This document shows positions 5,286 through 23,902 of a stretch of DNA of 24,000 nt, piece by piece. The DNA is taken from positions 53,095 through 77,094 of the forward strand of contig NZ_JBISEN010000005.1 in NCBI RefSeq assembly GCF_044383825.1, given 5' to 3'. Positions within the stretch are counted from its first letter, which is position 1; every line of letters begins with the position of its first letter. Position numbers and translations under genes: made by a program. The notes below the pieces were generated by a model. The model had not been told where the DNA came from. It saw only the letters and a list, made by a program, of their open reading frames with translations, and did no database searches. The DNA comes from Jeotgalibacillus sp. JSM ZJ347. Its GTDB lineage: Bacteria; Bacillota; Bacilli; Bacillales; Jeotgalibacillaceae.

Positions 5286-6551
5286 CTAGTCAACCTGATT
5301 CAAGAGTTTTTCTGTTGCACGATAGACTGCTCTCGGACGTCCCTGATCATATGGACGTTCAGTACCGGCATGTTGAATATATTGAAATTCAACAAACTTT
5401 TTGATCATTCTCTCAGCAGATCTTCTGGATTTTCCAGTGTAGGCAGCAAAATCATTTGCAGTAAAAGCTGGTGCGTCGCCATCAATAATAAATGATAAAA
5501 AAAGATGAACTGCTTTGGCAGCCAGATCAATTTCTTCAGCAATACGCAGGACATCTACAGAATCGGATTTAACTTTTATCTGCACCTTATGTTCAGCATT
5601 CCAATCTAATAAAACGTCTTTATCATTCAATAGATAAACTGCTGGACCACTGTGCTGATGTTTTTTTGCATACTGTAATGCATCATGTGCATGCAACTCT
5701 GCCCGCCTGAGCGTCTGCCCAAATCCAATCCCGATCACAGGTATATCTCCTGCTCCAAGCAGCTGCTCAGCATCAAAATTCTCTTCTACTGCTCCGCGTG
5801 TTGAATACAGATTCCAACTGTCATCCTGTTGTGTAACAGTGCCATTAAGCAACCGAATAAATGGATCATTTATCGCTTTGTATGAGCCATCTACTTTGAT
5901 TACTGCAACCTGGGATTTTTTCTCCTGCTCCAGCCTGCCGATTTGAATCGCTTTTTCGATTCCTTCTAACGTTGCAGATTCCGCCTGGATCATATAACGC
6001 GCAGGTACTCCGAGAGAAAGAAGCTGATCATATACGGCATGTATGCTTGTTAGGGCAATCAATGTTTCACCTGATTCATATAATGACCGGTGGTAGTTCA
6101 CAAACGCATCGAGGTCAAGCGTTTTTTGTTCTGATAACTCTTTATAGATCCATGCATAATCTTTTATGAACTTTACTTCATGGTCAGCCCCGAGCTGCTT
6201 AAGCACTCCATGAATCGTTCGCTGATCAGGCAAATCCAGTGACACCCGGCTCATGGTGATACCTTCCTGATAAAAAAGCTTGAACAACGAAAGCGCCACC
6301 ATTATTTCAGTAAACGGAGCGAAGGTGTATAGCAATTTTTTTTGCTTCACAGCAGAACGGGCATAAAAATAAGGAATGATACCTGAGAATAGCCAAACAT
6401 CCATTTTCTCTTCAACAGACCTGATTATACTTTCAGCCTCATCGGGAGATTCATATAAATATGGATAAAAACTGACTTCACGATATCTTTCTTTTAATTT
6501 TTCTATATCTTCAAGAAACTGCCTTGAACCAATTACACCAATTTTCATCAT
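5286..6551 (-). CDS. Hypothetical protein, possible transcriptional regulator with a C-terminal wHTH-like segment
   Basis: A 421-aa ORF with the GGGGG RBS close upstream. The C-terminal sequence FTANDFAAYTGKSRRSAERMIKKFVEFQYIQ looks like an HTH. I do not recognise the family, so the function call is weak. Confidence 0.55.
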   Translation of the reverse strand: MMKIGVIGSRQFLEDIEKLKERYREVSFYPYLYESPDEAESIIRSVEEKMDVWLFSGIIPYFYARSAVKQKKLLYTFAPFTEIMVALSLFKLFYQEGITMSRVSLDLPDQRTIHGVLKQLGADHEVKFIKDYAWIYKELSEQKTLDLDAFVNYHRSLYESGETLIALTSIHAVYDQLLSLGVPARYMIQAESATLEGIEKAIQIGRLEQEKKSQVAVIKVDGSYKAINDPFIRLLNGTVTQQDDSWNLYSTRGAVEENFDAEQLLGAGDIPVIGIGFGQTLRRAELHAHDALQYAKKHQHSGPAVYLLNDKDVLLDWNAEHKVQIKVKSDSVDVLRIAEEIDLAAKAVHLFLSFIIDGDAPAFTANDFAAYTGKSRRSAERMIKKFVEFQYIQHAGTERPYDQGRPRAVYRATEKLLNQVD

Positions 6552-6680: not shown

Positions 6681-6775
6681 GTTCGAACGTTCAGAATTGT
6701 TTTCTGGACAGGGAGGAACTTTCTAAACCACCCTGTCCTGGACAATTTCACACACATTCAGAACTAATTTCAAAA
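6681..6775. repeat. Dispersed intergenic repeat, two partial ends back to back (GGACAGGG ... CCCTGTCC)
   Basis: 6681-6713 GTTCGAACGTTCAGAATTGTTTTCTGGACAGGG resembles the right end of the 23.7-kb copy (GTGAATGTTCAAAATCGTTTTCAGGACAGGG). 6731-6775 CCCTGTCCTGGACAATTTCACACACATTCAGAACT resembles its left end and core. Confidence 0.6.
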
Positions 6776-13965: not shown

Positions 13966-14574
13966 ATGTCAAAACCATCATCATCTGCCTACGTACTCGC
14001 GTATGAAACGATCCGTGACAGAATTCTAAACGGAGAATTAGAAGGCGGAACAAAATTAACAGAAGAACGCCTTGCTGAAGAACTCGGCGTCAGCCGTACA
14101 CCCATCAGAGAATCCATCAGGCGGCTTGAGCAGGAAGGCTTAATCAAAAAGAAACGCGTCGTCAAACCAACCGAAAGCGACCTACGCCACATGTTCCAGG
14201 TACGCATGATCCTAGAAGGTCACGCCGCCAGAACCGCAGCCGCCTACATGACAGACGACGAACTCACAGCACTCGCCGAATGTATCCACGTCGGCCGCAC
14301 CGGCACCATCGAAGAAATCATGAAAGCCAATAAACAATTCCACGACTTAATTGTTCAAGCAAGTCGCAACCCTGTCATGATTGATATCATTGATCAGATG
14401 CAGTCGATTATTTATCTGTTCAGAAAAACCGTTGTGTATCATAAGAGACCTGGGTTGATTGATGAGCATGAGGAGATTTATGAAGCGATTAAGGGTAGAG
14501 ATGCTGAGAAGGCTGAGGAATTGATGAAGAAGCATTTGCAGGCGGATTTGGATTTTTCGGTGCATGTATTGTAA
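13966..14574 (+). CDS. GntR-family (FadR/FCD subfamily) transcriptional regulator
   Basis: YETIRDRILNGELEGGTKLTEERLAEELGVSRTPIRESIRRLEQEGLI is the GntR wHTH, and the helical C-terminal part is FCD-like. I prefer ATG 13966. The track's TTG 13921 start adds a Pro/Ala-rich extension, and neither start has a good RBS. Confidence 0.8.
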   Translation: MSKPSSSAYVLAYETIRDRILNGELEGGTKLTEERLAEELGVSRTPIRESIRRLEQEGLIKKKRVVKPTESDLRHMFQVRMILEGHAARTAAAYMTDDELTALAECIHVGRTGTIEEIMKANKQFHDLIVQASRNPVMIDIIDQMQSIIYLFRKTVVYHKRPGLIDEHEEIYEAIKGRDAEKAEELMKKHLQADLDFSVHVL

Positions 14575-14615
14575 TAGGAAAAAGCGTTGATTGGGGATCA
14601 ACGCTTTTTCCTATT
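14573..14615. terminator. Bidirectional rho-independent terminator (19-bp perfect stem)
   Basis: AATAGGAAAAAGCGTTGAT-tgggg-ATCAACGCTTTTTCCTATT. A-run/T-run flanks are built into the stem. It serves the GntR gene (+) and probably the 598-aa gene (-). Confidence 0.85.
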
Positions 14616-14667
14616 ACATTCTAGATCTTATAAAGACCACAAGCACAGGAGCAAACTTTGTGTAATT

Positions 14668-16464
14668 TTATTTAATTAACGCTTGAAAAGCTTTATATAT
14701 AGGAAGATTACTCAAAGCCTCTTGCTCCGTTTTACTCAAGGAATTAAATATTTTATTTGACTTATGCTTATTTCCTAATATAACCTCACATGCAAAACAT
14801 ATTGAGCTTTCGCTTTTCTTCTCCGCTTTTTCAAGTATTTCAAAGATCTCTTGCTCATCTTTAGTACTTAACTGAATTCTTTTCTTTATTTTTATCAAAT
14901 TGATATTAATTTTTGCTATATCGCTTTCTGGATCCTTTTCTAAATACCCTTCATTGAGTTCTAAAGCCAAATCTAAATATCTTTCATCATTGATTGAATC
15001 ATAATAATTTATACAATCCAAAGATTTGTTTATAGTAACGTCAGATTCAATGTCATGAAACTCCTCAGTGAAAGATAATTTAAATATATCAAAATTAAAA
15101 TTTGCCATTTCTTCTAAATCATTTATTTTTTCTGGAGTAAATATACTTACTTTCCAATACTTATCGTTCCAATCATTTCCCTTCCACTCACTAAATTCTT
15201 GTTCAAATTTTATTTCACTTTTGGGAGTAAATCCTCCCACTATAGACAATGCTTCTTTGCTAAACATATTAATAAATTTATTTCCGCTATACATAACCTT
15301 TATTTTTATATAATTTGATAACTCTAGATTAAATATCATATCTTCTATTTTAAAGTCTTTCTCAAAATTAATACGATCTAACTTTTTATCATTAAAAATT
15401 TCTATAATATCAGTAAAAAGATGCTCTAAGTCCTCGTTCTTATCAAACTCATAATTTGCACTAATTCCTATTTGATTAAAAATGTTTTTCATTTCTTCAT
15501 AAAACTTTATATCAGTTGACAAATTATCAAATAAGTCTTTTTCTGTTATAGTTACACCCAGGTTAATCTTATTAAAAGGTAGTTTACCTTTTTCGATGTG
15601 ATATTTAATGAAATACAAGCATTTCAAGTATGAATCGATCGATTTTATTTTATCTATATGTAACTTACCTGTTTTCACCTCTTTATAGACCTCGAGAGTT
15701 AATGTGTTTTCTATAATTACTATGATCTTATCTTCTGATTCTCTTATATTGTAATTAATCACCAAGCTATTATTGTCTATTTCAACCACTTCAAAATTAC
15801 CCATTTTAATCTCTTTTAGTAGTACAGAATTAAGAGGAATCTCATAATTATTTAAAATTCCGTACAAATAAACGCTCTCTTCAAACAAATTATAGCCCTC
15901 TTTATCAGTATCATGGAAACGGATCTTATAATTGGTGAAATCTTTTTCGTGAGATGCCTCAATTAAATGTTTTGGCTGGCTTTCTACTACTCTCAAAGTG
16001 TTAATGCAGATTGATTCTAGTTCTCCTATATTCAAAACTTTAAATGATATTGAGATCGTTTCATTACCGCTATTCTTAAGTTGATATAGTATACCTTTTA
16101 AATCTAACGGTGCAAGTCTTCTATAATATGCTTGCTTTGCTCGTGTGGCTTTATTTATGGTAACTACAAAGTAAAGTACACCTTGCCCATCTTTGTAATA
16201 GACCTCTAAGTCTTTTTTGGCGACACTATGTTTTATTTTATTTTTTTTATTTACTTTTTTAAAAGTTGTTGTTCCTTTTACTTGAACAGGAACTCTCCCT
16301 TTAAAATTAGCTTTTTCTATAGCACCATTATATATCTCAACATCACCATCAAATGAGAGCCCTTTGTCGTTCCACTTTACATTACTAATTAATCTGTATG
16401 GTGGTTGCAGTATATGATAGTTAATCTCCATACAAGCTAAGTGCTCAATAATCACCTTATCCAT
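14668..16464 (-). CDS. 598-aa hypothetical protein; N-terminal DUF4365 / PD-(D/E)xK nuclease-like domain plus about 430 aa of unassigned, partly helical sequence (candidate effector of the RT locus)
   Basis: Residues about 7-65 read EHLACME...NDKGLSFDGDVEIY...GRVPVQVKGTT. That gives the E ... DxGxD ... QxK arrangement I associate with DUF4365 and Mrr-like restriction-endonuclease folds. The protein is Lys/Asn/Ile-rich and the gene is very AT-rich. GAGGTG RBS. The domain assignment is from memory of the family pattern, not from a search. Confidence 0.6.
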   Translation of the reverse strand: MDKVIIEHLACMEINYHILQPPYRLISNVKWNDKGLSFDGDVEIYNGAIEKANFKGRVPVQVKGTTTFKKVNKKNKIKHSVAKKDLEVYYKDGQGVLYFVVTINKATRAKQAYYRRLAPLDLKGILYQLKNSGNETISISFKVLNIGELESICINTLRVVESQPKHLIEASHEKDFTNYKIRFHDTDKEGYNLFEESVYLYGILNNYEIPLNSVLLKEIKMGNFEVVEIDNNSLVINYNIRESEDKIIVIIENTLTLEVYKEVKTGKLHIDKIKSIDSYLKCLYFIKYHIEKGKLPFNKINLGVTITEKDLFDNLSTDIKFYEEMKNIFNQIGISANYEFDKNEDLEHLFTDIIEIFNDKKLDRINFEKDFKIEDMIFNLELSNYIKIKVMYSGNKFINMFSKEALSIVGGFTPKSEIKFEQEFSEWKGNDWNDKYWKVSIFTPEKINDLEEMANFNFDIFKLSFTEEFHDIESDVTINKSLDCINYYDSINDERYLDLALELNEGYLEKDPESDIAKININLIKIKKRIQLSTKDEQEIFEILEKAEKKSESSICFACEVILGNKHKSNKIFNSLSKTEQEALSNLPIYKAFQALIK

Positions 16465-16508
16465 TATTCACCTCTAAAAATAATTATTTGATAAATAAAA
16501 AATGATAA

Positions 16509-16526
16509 AGAAGGAAAAATCCTTCT
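16509..16526 (-). terminator. Terminator-like hairpin between the short RT gene and the 598-aa gene
   Basis: AGAAGGA-aaaa-TCCTTCT. On the minus strand the stem is followed by TTATCATTTTTTATTTATC (U-rich). It lies 45 nt upstream of the 598-aa start codon. The stem is short and AT-rich, so its strength is uncertain. Confidence 0.4.
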
Positions 16527-16567
16527 GTTCTGAGAAAAGCTTGTATATATACTATGATTTAATTAAA

Positions 16568-16609
16568 ATTCAGAAGTCATACAGAATTAATGTATATTTA
16601 CTTCGAAAT
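16568..16609. repeat. Core hairpin of the dispersed repeat family, inside the RT locus spacer
   Basis: ATTCAGAAGTCATACAGAAT matches 23753-23772 ATTCAGAAGTCATATAGAAT at 19 of 20 positions. The partner arm ACTTCGAAAT (16600-16609) lies 22 nt away, the same arm spacing as in the 23.7-kb copy. Confidence 0.55.
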
Positions 16610-16691
16610 GTGAATTTGAAATGAGTCTTAAAAAGCATTATCAAAATAGGGAGAGACTTCTATTATTACTTTTATAGTACATAATTAAAAA

Positions 16692-17807
16692 TCAATAGAG
16701 TTTGTCAAATATTTTCATCACCAATTTATTTTTGGTTATTTTTAGAGGTTGAGGTATTCCAATATTATTGGCAATTAAATGAAGTTGAGAAAGAGTAGCT
16801 TTGTTATAGTTATAAATCTGCGGTGCTTGTGAAAGGTTTAAAGAAAATAATAATTTTTTATTTTTTTTACTAAACAATCTGGAGGTATTAATTTGTTTAG
16901 CAATTTCTTTATTTAGTAAATCATAGCTTTCATATCTATTAATACGTTTATAACTATTTTTAAATCCATAAGATACTATTTTATTAGTAGAATATTTTTT
17001 TGTTTCAACTTTCCACAAAAGATTTCTTAAAGAATAATATAAGATATAAACATCCGATTGATTTCTGCTGCTATGAAAATAACGTGAAAATAATTCTTGG
17101 ATCTTTTTTATATATTTTTTAATTTTATCATTACTAACAGAAACGTCGATTTCATTTGAACCGTTGCTACTTTTGAAGGAATAACCAAGATATGAAAAAT
17201 CAAAATTGTTTTCTTTATTAACAACTTGTAGTTGAGTTTTATCATTTAGTTCTAACTGATAATTTTTCAAAAGCTTTTCAACTAAAGATATTAAATGATC
17301 TTTTTGTTCTTTGTGGTTACCATAAATCACTACAATAATATCATCTACAAATCTTTCATAGAGTTGTATATTAGGAAGAATAATCGGCATAAGTTGATCA
17401 AATTCTTCAAGATAAATTTCTGACAACGATGAAGAAAAGCTTATTCCCTGTGGCAACCCTTTAACCTTATTAGAAAACACGATTTCTTTCACCTTATTTA
17501 ACGAGTTCTCTTTTAACATCATAGACTTATTTAATTTTTGATACAGTTTATGAGTATTTATACTCTCAAAAAAATTCTTCACATCAAATCTTAAAATTGT
17601 CAGAGATGTCCCTTTAGCTATTTTTTCATTTTTATTACTTAAAACAGTTAATAAAGCATCAATTATGTAATCTCTGTTTTTATCTATTAATCTATACTTA
17701 TTTTTAAGTTCTAAATGAATCTGATAGTCAACTAGTTTTTGACTCGAAGGCGCTACATAAATATTACGATTTTTTATTATTAGACGCTTATATTTAGAAA
17801 CTTTCAA
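16692..17807 (-). CDS. Reverse transcriptase, compact form (371 aa), non-retron, non-intron; candidate defence RT (UG8/DRT3b-like by size and context)
   Basis: RT motifs read in the translation: IIKNRNIYVAPSSQKLVDYQI (RT1/2-like), LRFDVKNFFESINTHKL (motif A Asp), GLPQGISFSSSLSEIYLEEFD (motif B), YERFVDDIIVV (motif C, FVDD in place of YxDD), LELNDKTQ, and SYLGYSF (motif 7). TTG start with AAGGAG 10 nt upstream. Confidence 0.85.
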   Translation of the reverse strand: MKVSKYKRLIIKNRNIYVAPSSQKLVDYQIHLELKNKYRLIDKNRDYIIDALLTVLSNKNEKIAKGTSLTILRFDVKNFFESINTHKLYQKLNKSMMLKENSLNKVKEIVFSNKVKGLPQGISFSSSLSEIYLEEFDQLMPIILPNIQLYERFVDDIIVVIYGNHKEQKDHLISLVEKLLKNYQLELNDKTQLQVVNKENNFDFSYLGYSFKSSNGSNEIDVSVSNDKIKKYIKKIQELFSRYFHSSRNQSDVYILYYSLRNLLWKVETKKYSTNKIVSYGFKNSYKRINRYESYDLLNKEIAKQINTSRLFSKKNKKLLFSLNLSQAPQIYNYNKATLSQLHLIANNIGIPQPLKITKNKLVMKIFDKLY

Positions 17808-18064
17808 AGGTAATTCACTCCTTTTAAAGGTATGGCTAGGTGGTAAGCAAGCTCACCACCTTATCACCCCTCAACAAGCGGGTAATATTGGAGCTTAATT
17901 ATATAATGAATCAAGATCCCTAATGTGTGTGCAAGGAGCAGGTACTGTTCAACAGTATAATGTAAAAGCTTGACCGATCTAACAGTATATAAGTTGAATA
18001 AACCATTTCCCGTGTTACTTTTGGCCGATACCTCTGTTATTATAATAAGAAATAAAACAAAAAA
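17808..18064. ncRNA. Candidate structured non-coding RNA / shared control region between the two divergent RT genes (orientation unknown)
   Basis: 257 bp without a credible ORF. Patches are visibly more GC-rich than the surrounding island (for example 17832-17895). Features are a hairpin AGGTGGT-N10-ACCACCT (17838-17861), a palindrome TACTGTT-c-AACAGTA (17943-17957), direct repeats AACAGTATA (17951-17959 and 17981-17989) and TG(A/G)CCGAT (17971-17978 and 18022-18029), and a (TG)4 tract (17924-17931). The RNA itself is inferred, not demonstrated. Confidence 0.35.
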
Positions 18065-18079
18065 ATGGAAGAGGTTATT

Positions 18080-19966
18080 ATGAAAAATAAGTTTTTTCTT
18101 AAAACTGATGTTTTACCTTCAGAATTGCCAATAAATTTCACAAACAAAAACCTATATTTAGCAAAAAAGGATTTTTCGAATAAGATATATACTATTCCTT
18201 ATAATTTTGAAATCCCTAAACCTAATTCAATTAATAATAGGGTATTGAGTTTGCCTCATCCCATTGCACAATTACAAATGATGAATTTTATTGATGCATT
18301 TAAGTTTAATATAACTAGTTTTTGTTCGCTGTCACCCTTCAGTATAAGATCTCCTTATAAAATAAATTCAATAAATACTCATTTAATAAAAAGAAAGCTA
18401 CAAAAAATTACATATGACAATGAACAGTTTTTTAATGCTGATGATAAATATATGATCAGGCTATCTTATAACGATGTTGTTGAAGAATATCATAATTTTT
18501 TTAGATACAAGAAATTTAGTATGCTTACTCAATTTTTAAATTCTCCCATATATCATCGATCGAAATCTAAGTATGATAATTTTATGAAATTAGATATCCA
18601 AAATTATTTTGACTCAATTTACACCCATTCTATAGAATGGGCATTGGCAGGTGATAAATACAGTATCAAAACAGGGTCTTTAAATACAAATACTGATGAC
18701 TTTCTGAAGGCTATAGATTTAATATGTCAACAGATAAATTACAAAGAAACCAACGGAATCATAATAGGTCCAGAATTCTCTAGGATTATATCTGAAATTC
18801 TTTTAACAAGAATTGATTTAAATATATTTAGGGATTTGTTTGATGTTGGATTAAAATATAATAAAGATTATATTATTTATCGTTATATTGATGATTACTT
18901 TATTTTTTTCAATAATGTTAGTGATATGAATGATGATAAAATTAAAGGAATAATTAGTAATAGACTTAAAGAATACAAATTATCATTAAACGATAACAAA
19001 TATGCTTTAGCAGATTCCAAAACTACTTTAGAAGATGACAGTATTGTCACATTAATCAAAGTAATAGATTACTTTTCCCAAAAATATTTCGAAACTTCTA
19101 ACTTTGATAATCGTATGAAATACATAAGTAATTTCTTAATTGATTTTGAAGTTATTATACAAAAATACCCTACTAAAAAACAAAAGTTAGTAAGATATAC
19201 CTTAAAGTCTCTAAATAAATTTATCAAAACTACCAAGGTGGAACGTGACCGGAAATTAATATTCGAACTAGCTTTACACTTATTTTCTCATTCTCCTGAA
19301 TATTATAGTTCTAGGTATTACTATACTTTTTTTCTTAAATGTATAGAATTCTCTAAAAAAGAAAAAATGGACAAGAGTCTGCTACGCAAGTTAGATGAAG
19401 ACGCTTTTCATTTTATGGTGAAAGCTTTAAAACAGAATTCAAATCACTTCCCTAAAATATACGATTTACTTATAGCAATGAAATTTTTAGATAAGAAAAT
19501 ATCCTCTTCTTTACTTTGTTCACTAATTGAAAAACATAAAAACGATTATTTCAGTCTTTGCACAATTGCATTATATATATTAAATGAAGACAAAATTGTT
19601 ACTAAGCAATATATTATTGTGCTTAAAAAAATTATTTCCACTCTGGATTTCTTTTTAAAAAATTATACTCAAAAAAGCCCAAAGAAATATCAAGACGCTT
19701 TTTACTTCTATCTAATTAATGACTTTTATCATTATCCTGGGTTCAACAAAAATTTTATTACAAAAAAAATTCATATGTCTTTAAAAAATGAATATAATGA
19801 GATGAAAAAAAATATGAATTTAGAATCATCTGTAACTCCTTCTGAGATTGATGTATTAATCAACAGATCTTATTTTAATTGGACCTGTAAGTTTGAATGG
19901 TTCTTTAAAAGAAGTATTCTTAAATCTGAAAACATTTCAAATGATACTATTAATAGCGATTATTAA
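18080..19966 (+). CDS. Reverse transcriptase, large UG/Abi-type (628 aa from ATG 18080; 633 aa from track start 18065) with a long helical C-terminal extension
   Basis: Motifs: LPSELPINF ... RVLSLPHPIAQLQ (N-terminal RT region), FMKLDIQNYFDSIYTHSIEWAL (motif A plus the SIYTHS signature I associate with Abi/UG defence RTs), NGIIIGPEFSRIISEILLTRID (motif B), and YRYIDDYFIFF (YxDD). About 330 aa of Lys/Tyr/Phe-rich helical sequence follows. GAGG lies 5 nt upstream of ATG 18080. Confidence 0.85.
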   Translation: MKNKFFLKTDVLPSELPINFTNKNLYLAKKDFSNKIYTIPYNFEIPKPNSINNRVLSLPHPIAQLQMMNFIDAFKFNITSFCSLSPFSIRSPYKINSINTHLIKRKLQKITYDNEQFFNADDKYMIRLSYNDVVEEYHNFFRYKKFSMLTQFLNSPIYHRSKSKYDNFMKLDIQNYFDSIYTHSIEWALAGDKYSIKTGSLNTNTDDFLKAIDLICQQINYKETNGIIIGPEFSRIISEILLTRIDLNIFRDLFDVGLKYNKDYIIYRYIDDYFIFFNNVSDMNDDKIKGIISNRLKEYKLSLNDNKYALADSKTTLEDDSIVTLIKVIDYFSQKYFETSNFDNRMKYISNFLIDFEVIIQKYPTKKQKLVRYTLKSLNKFIKTTKVERDRKLIFELALHLFSHSPEYYSSRYYYTFFLKCIEFSKKEKMDKSLLRKLDEDAFHFMVKALKQNSNHFPKIYDLLIAMKFLDKKISSSLLCSLIEKHKNDYFSLCTIALYILNEDKIVTKQYIIVLKKIISTLDFFLKNYTQKSPKKYQDAFYFYLINDFYHYPGFNKNFITKKIHMSLKNEYNEMKKNMNLESSVTPSEIDVLINRSYFNWTCKFEWFFKRSILKSENISNDTINSDY

Positions 19967-20007
19967 TTGAAATATTGACAAATCAAAATCATATTATAAA
20001 AAACAAA

Positions 20008-20086
20008 CCCTGCGTTAGAAGTTATTTATGTCGACAATCAAAATCAGTTAACCTTAAAAAGATTGTTCAGCGCAGGGTATTTTTTT
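20008..20086. terminator. Bidirectional terminator-like element with an unusually large (56-nt) loop
   Basis: AAAAAACAAA-CCCTGCG ... CGCAGGG-TATTTTTTT. It has an A-run upstream and a T-run downstream, so either strand reads stem plus U-tract. An inner helper stem is GACAATC / GATTGTT. It lies between the large RT gene (+) and DegV (-). Confidence 0.5.
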
Positions 20087-20161
20087 ATTAGATTTTTATA
20101 AAACTCAATTTTATGTAGTTAGTACTTTCCCTATGATAAGTAACTGTCAGTTTAATCTTTT

Positions 20162-21025
20162 TTATAGCTTTTTTAAATTCTCCAACCCCGCAACCCCAAA
20201 TCCCCCAGGTCCCGAATGCGTCGAAATCATCCCACCAGCCTGAATCCATCTAACATTTTCAAATCCATTCTCCTTCGCAACTTCATCCATCCGTTGCTTG
20301 ATCCCCTCATCAAGTCCAATCGAATAAATCAGATACAGTTGCTCTCTATCAATATCGAATTCTTTTAAGTAATCACTAAAAAGCTTCTCAGTCGCTCCGC
20401 TCATTTTCCCGCGGTATTTCTTTGTGGAGACGAGCTTTCCACCCTTTAATTCGATGCATGGCTTTATTTTCAGCAGTGCGCCGATCAGGGAAGCCATGTT
20501 GCTGACGCGGCCTCCTGCTTTTAGAAATTCGAGGCTGCCCGGGATGAAGGCGAGTTTTGATTTTGGAACGACTGCTTCTATTTTTTCGATTAAGTGTGCT
20601 GGTTCGATGTCAGGTTCTTTTTCCAGTAAGTCAGCAGCATATAATACAACAGCTGCTAATCCTCCGGTTACGTTTAGCGCGTCGATCAGGTGGAGGTTTT
20701 CGAATTCTTCTGCAGCGATGACTGCGTTTTGAAAGGATGAGGATGCCTGTGATGTATAGCCGATATGTACGATGGTGCTGTCAGGGTACTGTTCTTTGAT
20801 AGATGTGAAAAACTCCTGGTACTCGTGAATATTCGTGGCGGTGGTGGAAGGTATTTTCTTCGTGCGGTCATAGTAGTCATAGATGTCCTGGACTGGTAAA
20901 GAGCCGTCCAGATAATCTTTTCCGTCCATGATGATGTGCATGGGAACGACTTGCAGATTGTACTTTTCAACTAGATCCTTCGGCAGGTCGGCGCCGCTTT
21001 CGGTTGATAGGATGATGTTAGGCAT
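20162..21025 (-). CDS. DegV-family fatty-acid-binding protein
   Basis: MPNIILSTESGADLPKDLVEKYNLQVVPMHIIMDGKDYLDG is a typical DegV N-terminus. The start is chosen at ATG 21025, with GGGGGA upstream. The track's 41-aa extension lacks an RBS. Confidence 0.85.
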   Translation of the reverse strand: MPNIILSTESGADLPKDLVEKYNLQVVPMHIIMDGKDYLDGSLPVQDIYDYYDRTKKIPSTTATNIHEYQEFFTSIKEQYPDSTIVHIGYTSQASSSFQNAVIAAEEFENLHLIDALNVTGGLAAVVLYAADLLEKEPDIEPAHLIEKIEAVVPKSKLAFIPGSLEFLKAGGRVSNMASLIGALLKIKPCIELKGGKLVSTKKYRGKMSGATEKLFSDYLKEFDIDREQLYLIYSIGLDEGIKQRMDEVAKENGFENVRWIQAGGMISTHSGPGGFGVAGLENLKKL

Positions 21026-21682: not shown

Positions 21683-21895
21683 CGCCAACAACTCTCCTTG
21701 AAGCTACAACTAGCATCACACATCGAAGCCAAAGCGTTAACGCACATAATCAATGTAATGATCTTCTAATAATATATGCTAATTATAGGAATTATTGACC
21801 AAAACACTTGACTCTATTATATGGATAATTTACCATTAAATTGTAAACTAGTTGCGCAACTTGTAATCTACAGACAAAATAACAAGGAGGATTTT

Positions 21896-22573
21896 ATGTT
21901 ATTTAGTAAAGTCTTTAAAAAGTCATTCTTTTCACTGATAGTAACTTTACTTTTTGTAGGGATGATATCCCCAGCCTATTCAAGTGCAGAAACTGTTGAC
22001 TCAAATTCAGTAGAAAATGGTCTGCCAATGGAAACCATAAACTTAGCTGATAAGTATATCACAGTTACTAATAATAAATTCGTCATAACCGATAGCGAAG
22101 AATTAAAGAATGAAATTGGAGAAAAAGAGTTTAATATCGTTGAAAATTTAGTAAAAGAGAATAATGAATTGTTAAAAGAAAATTGGAATCCCAATATAGT
22201 AAAACAAGGCAATAAATTTACTGAATCAGTACAGAATGAGGCAAGTGGTCAATTCACTGTTCAAGCTGTAAATGCCTCTCAGTATATAGACGTTGATTAT
22301 ACTTGGTGGGGGATGCAAGTTTATTTTTCTTCATCAGCGATTACTGATCTTAATGATTTCCTTGCAATTAATGGTATTGTAGGTGGCTTAGGTGCTGCTG
22401 ATGGAATTAAAAGCTTTCTAGCTAAGAATGGGTATAAAGTAACTTCAAAAGCATTAGGTCCTGTAGCGCTATTCTCTGGTGGAGTTAGTTGGGCTATGAG
22501 TAAAGTAGATAAAGGCAATGGAGTAAATCTAAATTGTGTACTTTACGTGCCGGCCACTATTACAGCAGCATAA
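21896..22573 (+). CDS. Secreted hypothetical protein (Sec signal peptide)
   Basis: The start is ATG 21896, with AAGGAGG upstream. MLFSKVFKKSFFSLIVTLLFVGMISPAYS/SAETV looks like a signal peptide with an AYS-SA cleavage site. The C-terminal part is Gly/Ala-rich. No family was recognised. Confidence 0.65.
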   Translation: MLFSKVFKKSFFSLIVTLLFVGMISPAYSSAETVDSNSVENGLPMETINLADKYITVTNNKFVITDSEELKNEIGEKEFNIVENLVKENNELLKENWNPNIVKQGNKFTESVQNEASGQFTVQAVNASQYIDVDYTWWGMQVYFSSSAITDLNDFLAINGIVGGLGAADGIKSFLAKNGYKVTSKALGPVALFSGGVSWAMSKVDKGNGVNLNCVLYVPATITAA

Positions 22574-23691: not shown

Positions 23692-23706
23692 GGCATGAAT
23701 TTAACT

Positions 23707-23836
23707 CCCTGTCCTAAACACAATTATGAATATTTACTTCAAATCAATTAACATTCAGAAGTCATATAGAATCATTGGTTTCACACTTCTGAATATACGT
23801 TTGTAGTGAATGTTCAAAATCGTTTTCAGGACAGGG
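23707..23836. repeat. Full-length (about 130 bp) copy of the dispersed intergenic repeat with inverted ends CCCTGTCCTAAACA ... TTTTCAGGACAGGG
   Basis: The terminal inverted repeats are 23707-23720 and 23823-23836. The internal hairpin is ATTCAGAAGT (23753-23762) / ACTTCTGAAT (23785-23794). An upstream alternative partner is ACTTCAAAT (23746-23754). Related sequences occur at 6681-6775, 9088-9132 and 16568-16609. Confidence 0.65.
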
Positions 23837-23902
23837 ATAATTTCCAAAAAAACTCCCTCTCAATATATGGAGAAGGAATTCTGTCTGGTTATAAACCGGT
23901 TG

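Follow-up and report, generated by a model that had tools for sequence, protein, structure and literature searches.

The window analyzed here, a 24-kb stretch of the genome of Jeotgalibacillus sp. JSM ZJ347 to whose positions all coordinates refer unless another locus is named, contains between the convergent genes for a GntR regulator and for DegV an AT-rich island (14610-20180) of three genes, which specify a DUF4365-containing protein of 598 amino acids (aa) and two reverse transcriptases (RTs), one small and one large. The question raised by this locus is whether the three genes constitute a single, undescribed RT-based defence system, as was proposed in an earlier note made from the sequence alone. 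The explanation favoured in the current work, and considered very probable, is that a chromosomal hotspot bounded by the 3' ends of GntR and degV harbours two adjacent, independent defence-type modules, the first being a DRT3 system of the divergent layout and the second being the solitary gene for the 598-aa protein.

Assignment of the two reverse transcriptases to DRT3

The gene for the small RT (16692-17807, minus strand) starts with a TTG codon and encodes 371 aa, with motif A at Asp75 and an intact catalytic motif C of the form F-V-D155-D156, the FVDD variant being present in 13 of 92 Drt3a homologues. Among the 30 RT families of PADLOC, Drt3a (UG3, a class 2 UG RT) represents the best match of this protein (E 3.1e-63, 213 bits), the next-best family being UG17 (E 9e-29), to which DRT10 belongs, and the Pfam domain RVT_1 was also recognized. 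The gene for the large RT (18065-19966, plus strand) corresponds to an open reading frame (ORF) of 633 aa, for which Pfam returned no match and PADLOC returned Drt3b (UG8, a class 1 UG RT with, by family, an alpha-repeat C-terminal region) with an E value of 6.6e-117 and 390 bits, residues 7-611 being aligned to positions 15-585 of the 604-position profile. The true Drt3b is probably a 628-aa protein translated from the ATG at 18080, because its homologues begin at the equivalent of this codon and the NCBI protein also starts there; the NCBI name of the large RT is only 'RNA-directed DNA polymerase'.

The two genes, drt3a and drt3b, are adjacent and divergent, being separated by 257 bp, and their pairing recurs in approximately 100 other loci. 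Judged from these sequence matches, the RT pair of the island is a DRT3 (UG3 plus UG8) system, a defence system that has been described by Gao et al. 2020 and Mestre et al. 2022 (PMC9226505), and the combination of a large and a small RT can therefore not be regarded as undescribed. The attribution of RTs to the UG/Abi defence lineage in the earlier note was thereby supported, while its suggestion of a novel system had to be abandoned for this pair.

Drt3b of the window was aligned with 19 firmicute and proteobacterial homologues, several of them bearing a Drt3b annotation. Residues E20, R59, D177, F182, R240 and D276/D277 (of the Y-I-D-D motif) are invariant in the 20 sequences, and the C-terminal tyrosine Y633, the final residue of the protein, is conserved in at least 90% of them. 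Their counterparts in the E. coli system EcoDRT3, as determined by sequence context, are E22, R71, D182, F187, R241, YVDD and Y666. The mechanism of DRT3 has been reported by Wang et al. 2026 (PMC13174585), according to whom Eco Drt3b is a hexamer in which E22 and R241 act as nucleotide gates and poly(dCdA) synthesis is primed from Tyr666.

An assignment of the RTs to a retron, to a group II intron or to another DRT type (DRT10/UG17, DRT4, DRT6 or AbiK) could draw on weaker matches, which for the small RT are UG17, the group II intron RT model TIGR04416 (79 bits, with a cut-off of 300 bits) and the retron St85 RT model (49.6 bits, with a cut-off of 235 bits), and for the large RT are Drt6 (8e-44), Drt4 (3e-34) and AbiK (9e-25). 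These are far exceeded by the scores for Drt3a and Drt3b, the group II intron and retron scores fall far under their cut-offs, and the retron RTs of PADLOC match the small RT far more weakly than Drt3a does. Furthermore, an Rfam scan of positions 14000-20600 at E<=1 yielded solely spurious microRNA matches on the terminator hairpin that marks the left island border, with no group II intron or retron RNA and no DRT3 non-coding RNA (ncRNA) family, and the UG3 and UG8 pair in combination with an ACACAC motif (see below) is specific to DRT3. The probability of such an alternative assignment is considered negligible.

A divergent layout distinct from that of the E. coli system

In EcoDRT3 the genes are co-directional and overlapping, and the order is drt3a-drt3b-ncRNA (PMC13174585), whereas those of the window are divergent. 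Annotation was carried out for approximately 105 loci that encode Drt3b, taken from assemblies, metagenomes and viral contigs; 17 of these, apart from the window, are divergent in the same manner with a gap of 197-350 bp, while the remaining loci are co-directional. The four closest relatives of the window Drt3b share 42-65% identity with it, and identity to proteobacterial Drt3b is approximately 28%.

The position of the ACACAC motif, which in EcoDRT3 is the ncRNA template 5'-ACACAC-3' that Drt3a reverse-transcribes into poly(dTdG) (PMC13174585), was determined in non-redundant loci with adequate flanks (59 canonical and 12 divergent), the region 3' of drt3b being considered up to a distance of 300 nt. 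In canonical loci, with the ncRNA 3' of drt3b, the motif occurs in that region on the sense strand in 56 of 59 cases and on the antisense strand in 2 of 59. None of the 12 divergent loci carries it there; instead, it is present in the gap between the two genes, on the drt3a strand in all 12 and on the other strand in none. At the window locus, the segment 3' of drt3b is occupied by a terminator-like hairpin (CCCUGCG...CGCAGGG) followed by U7 (20007-20086, plus strand, z -3.2), which is part of the right border region and does not contain ACACAC, and the presence of a canonical-type ncRNA 3' of drt3b was therefore rejected. The divergent orientation of the genes and the absence of ACACAC 3' of drt3b thus indicate an alternative layout and not the E. 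coli subtype.

This alternative layout corresponds to that reported for Terrabacteria, in which UG3 and UG8 are encoded on opposite strands and the intervening non-coding DNA is conserved in sequence and structure (PMC9226505; UG8 ncRNA groups 18-20). The window locus possesses both the opposite-strand UG3 and UG8 genes and a conserved non-coding element between them, and is accordingly a member of that layout. In the main text of PMC9226505 a CACACA motif is reported only for the canonical groups 1-17; beyond that account, the motif was found here on the drt3a strand of all divergent gaps, and the leader of drt3a appears to be the RNA that contains it.

The window locus has in common with EcoDRT3 both RT families, the key residues of Drt3b including the C-terminal priming tyrosine, an exposed (AC)n sequence in a structured RNA (predicted here) and the lack of any further protein component. 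In addition to the orientation of the genes, it differs in the location of the template RNA, which in the window is 5' of drt3a in the intergenic gap and in EcoDRT3 is 3' of drt3b, and in its Drt3a, which is shorter (371 aa) and has the FVDD motif. The window Drt3a covers only positions 82-389 of the 411-position PADLOC profile, and an N-terminal segment is therefore missing. Drt3a proteins of the divergent type (window and loci L024-L040) have a length of 371-420 aa, compared to approximately 400-500 aa for most canonical ones.

A candidate template RNA in the gap between drt3a and drt3b

The only ACACAC sequence of the island is located at 17925-17930 on the minus strand, within the 257-bp gap (17808-18064). 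It is contained in CACACACA (17924-17931, minus strand), which is the predicted template from which Drt3a would produce poly(dTdG). The mean probability of being unpaired, P(unpaired), is 0.81 for this template in the window and ranges from 0.52 to 0.99 across 14 divergent gaps. An (AC)n stretch of 7 nt or more is present on the drt3a strand in 15 of 15 divergent gaps, and on the other strand in 0 of 15.

The minus-strand RNA of the 257-bp gap folds with a z-score of -3.66, and its segment 17826-18035 (minus strand) constitutes the candidate DRT3 ncRNA, whose architecture is common to divergent loci. A closing helix is formed between AGAGGUAU.GGC at 18024-18035 and GCC.AUACCUUU at 17826-17836, the 3' strand of which abuts the Shine-Dalgarno sequence of drt3a (GGAG, 17818-17821). 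Enclosed by this helix are three hairpins, at approximately 17890-17919, 17862-17887 and 17838-17861, a variable 5' domain and the single-stranded template region. The consensus structure of the window RNA and that of locus L024 comprises 40 pairs, 5 of which are compensatory, and in 14 of 14 gaps folded individually the same plan was recovered, consisting of the closing helix, a variable 5' domain, the mostly unpaired template, two or three hairpins and the ribosome-binding site.

The closing helix occurs in at least five sequence versions, and in a MAFFT alignment 76% of its positions are paired, compared to 27-50% in slid registers and 66% in shuffles, with 0 of 500 shuffles reaching the observed value. 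Five of its nine pairs are altered on both sides, and the energy of the closing duplex is better than that of dinucleotide shuffles in 14 of 14 gaps. No terminator was found between the candidate ncRNA and drt3a. These sequence features suggest that drt3a is preceded by the ncRNA as its 5' leader, in the manner of the class 2 UG RTs DRT2 and DRT9, whose ncRNA is located 5' of the RT gene (PMC9226505).

Upstream of the closing helix, the palindrome TTATTATAATAA (18037-18048) presents a TATAAT box on both strands; it was read from the sequence and falls outside the scoring of the promoter scan. A -10-like box precedes the closing helix by 2-8 nt in most divergent loci, and TTATTATAATAA possibly represents two back-to-back -10 elements, one for ncRNA-drt3a (minus strand) and one for drt3b (plus strand). 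The drt3b promoter and the ncRNA 5' end must overlap.

A different strand assignment, in which the ncRNA would be located upstream of drt3b and co-oriented with it and would thus carry GUGUGU instead of ACACAC, could be derived from PMC9226505, in which the Terrabacteria ncRNA is placed 'upstream of UG8' and its sequence was retrieved relative to UG8, the strand being unstated; the helices are, moreover, strand-symmetric to a first approximation. This symmetry is broken by the G-U pairs of the closing helix, which become A-C mismatches on the other strand, and RNA of the drt3a strand is 4-28 kcal/mol more stable than its antisense in 14 of 15 regions. The template established by experiment, 5'-ACACAC-3' read by Drt3a, is available only on the drt3a strand in all 15 gaps, the TATAAT box precedes the 5' strand of the helix whose 3' strand adjoins the drt3a Shine-Dalgarno sequence, and the position 5' of the RT gene is that known from DRT2 and DRT9. 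An ncRNA on the drt3b strand is for these reasons judged very improbable, and the assignment to the drt3a leader is retained.

With its ncRNA candidate directly upstream of an RT gene, the window locus resembles DRT10 (UG17), DRT9 and DRT2, in which repeated copying of a short template, exposed in a loop or junction, yields tandem-repeat DNA, as is proposed for the window RNA; UG17 is also the second-best family match of Drt3a. DRT10 differs from DRT3 in consisting of a single RT and a SLATT effector, and DRT10, DRT9 and DRT2 do not possess a second, protein-templated RT that generates the complementary strand.

Proposed activity of the DRT3 module

The first module (16692-20086) very probably represents a complete DRT3 system in the divergent (Terrabacteria) layout. 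A promoter in the 257-bp gap would direct transcription of a minus-strand, structured leader of approximately 210 nt followed by drt3a, in which the long-range helix would close the leader and CACACACA would be exposed in a single-stranded junction. Drt3a would then use CACACACA as a reiterated template to synthesize poly(dTdG); CUCUCUCU is an example of an altered template in place of CACACACA. Drt3b, which is transcribed in the opposite direction, would synthesize poly(dCdA) in the absence of a nucleic-acid template, with the C-terminal Y633 as primer and with E20 and R240 gating dA and dC, and annealing of poly(dTdG) and poly(dCdA) would generate a poly(GT/AC) duplex DNA.

As regards the DNA produced, the trigger and the outcome, the proposal for the window locus is made by analogy with experiments on EcoDRT3. 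In that system the two strands anneal to double-stranded DNA, the level of which is held low by RecBCD, and inhibition of RecBCD by the phage protein Gam results in abortive infection by DRT3 (PMC13174585). In the host of the window locus the exonuclease is AddAB, as compared to RecBCD in E. coli, and AddAB may remove the duplex until it is inhibited by a phage, upon which accumulation of the duplex may cause growth arrest.

Several points weigh against this interpretation as a whole and qualify individual parts of it. The role of AddAB and that of a phage inhibitor are a pure analogy with the E. coli system. NCBIfam also ranks Drt3a first for the small RT and Drt3b first for the large RT, yet at 155 bits (equivalog cut-off of 200 bits) and 278 bits (cut-off of 350 bits), respectively, and as both RTs score under the equivalog cut-offs they must be divergent members of their families. 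With regard to the RNA, RNAalifold applied to the MAFFT alignment of 14 trimmed RNAs yielded zero consensus pairs, because the RNA subgroups are too divergent for sequence alignment, and a covariance model based on the RNAs of the window and of L024 was too specific, recovering only those two among 25 loci; the architecture therefore rests on per-sequence folds and one helix. The sequences in which that helix was counted are also those from which it was derived, the alignment is out of register at the helix for L026 and L027, and the z-scores of the closing duplex are modest (-1.2 to -4.2, mean -1.9). The 'upstream of UG8' wording discussed above and the single co-occurrence at a canonical locus described below belong to the same side of the balance.

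Scores under the NCBIfam cut-offs, together with the foreign base composition and a miniature inverted-repeat transposable element (MITE)-like repeat inserted in the island, could also be taken as signs of horizontally acquired DNA in decay, of which the locus would be a non-functional remnant. Since all three ORFs are full-length in comparison with their homologues, the catalytic, gating and priming residues are intact, and both the template and the RNA architecture are conserved, such decay is considered very unlikely, and an intact DRT3 module next to a second module remains the favoured explanation.

The 598-aa protein as a separate module

The second module (14668-16464, minus strand) consists of the solitary gene for the 598-aa protein as a terminator-bounded unit of its own. 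The protein combines an N-terminal DUF4365/DREN nuclease domain of the PD-(D/E)xK type with a beta-rich middle part and a C-terminal region resembling tetratricopeptide repeats (TPR), as concluded from Pfam, an AlphaFold (AF2) model and Foldseek. In agreement with the earlier note, which had recognized a DUF4365-like protein, Pfam DUF4365 was matched above its gathering score (E 1.3e-5), and no further Pfam domain was detected at E<=1. The AF2 model has a pLDDT (predicted local distance difference test score) of 87.9; in Foldseek, residues 1 to approximately 155 resemble the DUF4365 (DREN) nuclease of SPARDA with a probability of 1.0, and the last 125 residues or so resemble TPR repeats, the middle receiving no assignment. 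D39, Q61 and K63 are invariant in 31 homologues, Q61 and K63 corresponding to the active-site residues Q62 and K64 of the DUF4365 nuclease TmuRE. The protein has no match in PADLOC and aligns end to end with phrog_9827 (E 1e-31); despite this match to a PHROG family, a tblastn search against sequenced phages returned no match.

The proposal of a single integrated system, hitherto undescribed, that would comprise all three genes with the DUF4365 nuclease as the effector of the two RTs, is suggested by their adjacency in a single AT-rich insert and by the fact that DRT3 has no known effector, the cause of growth arrest being still open (PMC13174585). It is further favoured by a metagenome contig (L060, 2-6932), in which a 598-aa homologue, of which the C-terminal 283 aa are visible, is followed by a 293-aa ORF with a weak RES match, a 621-aa ORF without matches and a canonical drt3a-drt3b pair, the homologue being located approximately 3 kb upstream of the DRT3 genes; all genes of this contig are co-directional with short gaps. 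L060 is the sole other DRT3 locus with the 598-aa family nearby, that is, 1 of approximately 85 canonical loci. The family is present at 0 of 17 other divergent DRT3 loci and is lacking at those of the four closest Drt3b relatives, and, conversely, Drt3a or Drt3b was found in 0 of 23 genome loci of the 598-aa family, searched up to 10 kb on each side, nor was DRT3 nearby on the two plasmids inspected. Moreover, a terminator and a MITE-like remnant intervene between the 598-aa gene and drt3a, and EcoDRT3 defence requires just two RTs and the ncRNA (PMC13174585). Absence of the three-gene combination from other genomes, which the earlier note had named as refuting evidence, is essentially what was observed. 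A single three-gene system is hence regarded as most improbable; by sequence and distribution, the 598-aa gene is a separate module and not a part of DRT3.

In 14 loci of the 598-aa family no conserved neighbour was found, and on Bacillus and Priestia plasmids (31 records, two of which were inspected) the gene is solitary. In Rossellomorea sp. SC111 (L004, 8644-13812) a homologue is located between a type IV methyl-directed restriction enzyme (4e-57) and an OLD nuclease (6e-87), a setting which lends guilt-by-association support to a defence role of the family. The most likely role of the 598-aa protein is that of a nuclease acting as a single-gene defence or addiction system, in which the TPR and middle domains may serve as sensor or regulator. 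More specifically, the family, whose members are widely found on chromosomes and plasmids of Bacillales and which also matches a family of phage proteins, may represent an undescribed, stand-alone, single-gene anti-phage nuclease, a reading to which we assign somewhat less than an even chance. That the nuclease is instead an optional accessory effector of DRT3 at this locus, and perhaps at L060, for instance one that senses the poly(GT/AC) duplex or acts on it, is given hardly any credence; if true, it would supply the unexplained growth-arrest step of DRT3.

Among characterized proteins, the DUF4365(DREN)-APAZ nucleases of SPARDA and TmuRE-Ago share with the N-terminal 155 or so residues a PD-(D/E)xK-type fold and a Q-x-K motif. 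Unlike SPARDA, the 598-aa protein has neither an APAZ domain nor a short Argonaute partner and is encoded by a solitary gene, with a beta-rich middle part and a TPR-like C-terminus. Membership in SPARDA or short prokaryotic Argonaute systems was rejected, as no Argonaute-sized gene was found in the island or beside homologues and no PADLOC match was obtained. Divona, a validated single-gene DUF4365 anti-phage defence from Vibrio integron cassettes (bioRxiv 10.1101/2024.07.02.601686), is similar in that one polypeptide carries a DUF4365 nuclease-type domain at its N-terminus, fused to a further domain. In Divona the partner is crr6 (PF08847) and the gene is a small integron cassette, whereas the 598-aa family possesses TPR and unknown domains and is found on Bacillales chromosomes and plasmids and in a phage protein family. 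Membership in Divona was likewise rejected, with no crr6 match in Pfam at E<=1 and a C-terminus that is TPR by fold.

The GntR/degV site and the remainder of the window

The island is distinguished by a GC content of 0.23-0.30 at approximately 14600-20000, compared to 0.43-0.50 in the flanking genes, whose convergent stop codons are located at 14574 (GntR) and 20162 (DegV). It contains exactly three large ORFs and two non-coding gaps, one of 227 bp (16465-16691) and one of 257 bp, and no integrase, transposase or phage gene was found among the ORFs inside it. Terminator hairpins are present at both ends, the one at the left border (14570-14618) being a perfect 23-bp hairpin (-32.6 kcal/mol, z -8.0) that is terminator-like and common to the GntR and 598-aa genes. 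The description of the island in the earlier note, namely an AT-rich insert with three large genes, two long gaps, a terminator at each end and no mobility or phage gene, was thus accurate, and its view of a horizontally acquired cassette between convergent genes received support.

Comparison with J. haloalkalitolerans placed the borders at 14609/14610, within the left-border hairpin, and at approximately 20180/20181, homology to the window ending at <=14609 in the 3' region of GntR and at >=20181 in degV. Homology to other Jeotgalibacillus degV genes restarts only at 20178-20183, and the right junction is therefore situated inside the last codons of degV; the degV product has 287 aa here, compared to 283 aa in relatives. 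Between the same two points J. haloalkalitolerans (L133, 8853-15165) carries 5.8 kb of different cargo, consisting of a Schlafen/AlbA_2 protein (PDC-S50-like), PD-Lambda-1/SNIPE (E 9e-175) and an 873-aa NB-ARC protein, the last of which has no PADLOC match; its GntR gene is a truncated remnant specifying residues 72-217 only. In J. alimentarius and J. malaysiensis other genes follow degV. An empty site, with GntR and DegV directly adjacent, was not encountered in these three species, the site being variable instead. The exchangeable cargo identifies the GntR/degV site as a defence hotspot, which is more readily reconciled with independent acquisition of two modules than with a single cassette.

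The earlier note had considered both non-coding gaps to be structured ncRNA candidates, which holds for the 257-bp gap with its template motif and not for the 227-bp gap. The latter folds weakly (z -1.6) and is occupied for the most part by a degenerate copy (16515-16668, approximately 72% identity) of a palindromic, MITE-like repeat of about 140 nt, and a small hairpin with a U-rich tail at 16509-16526 (minus strand), which resembles an intrinsic terminator, is located 3' of drt3a and separates this gene from that of the 598-aa protein. Being a repeat remnant with a weak fold, together with the terminator of drt3a, the 227-bp gap was therefore rejected as a second ncRNA of the system. An intact copy of the repeat is present at 23698-23843 (-46.2 kcal/mol, z -8.4), with the terminal inverted repeats CTCCCTGTCCTGAAAAC...GTTTTCAGGACAGGGAG, and a fragment is found at 6682-6718. 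Further copies are located in L134 (14286-14561 and 16335-16474), and at least two Jeotgalibacillus genomes, including that of J. alimentarius, contain the repeat.

The 598-aa protein, Drt3b and DegV show 100% identity to NCBI proteins from strain JSM ZJ347. The remaining genes of the window encode ordinary transporters, a GntP permease, an enolase-superfamily protein, an M20 peptidase, and MerR, MarR and GntR regulators. Two ORFs, 5286-6551 (minus strand, 421 aa) and 21821-22573 (plus strand, 250 aa), have no Pfam match at E<=1e-4.

Significance for DRT3 and for Jeotgalibacillus

As a discovery the locus carries little weight, given that the two-RT system is DRT3 and that its head-to-head layout in Gram-positive bacteria was noted in 2022. 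Mechanistic work on DRT3 has been confined to the E. coli subtype, and the subtypes and architectures of DRT3 figure as an open question in a 2026 review. The present analysis adds a placement of the template RNA in the leader that precedes drt3a, which agrees with the position in other class 2 UG RTs and provides a testable prediction of its strand and boundaries. Because the divergent subtype keeps the ACACAC template and all gating and priming residues of Drt3b, the poly(GT/AC) output predicted from these sequences is probably universal in DRT3. Divergent Gram-positive DRT3 systems are probably under-annotated in public genomes, because the NCBI equivalog models miss this subtype. The 598-aa protein belongs to a DUF4365-TPR family of uncharacterized, widely distributed candidate defence nucleases, and in Jeotgalibacillus the GntR/degV site constitutes a defence hotspot.

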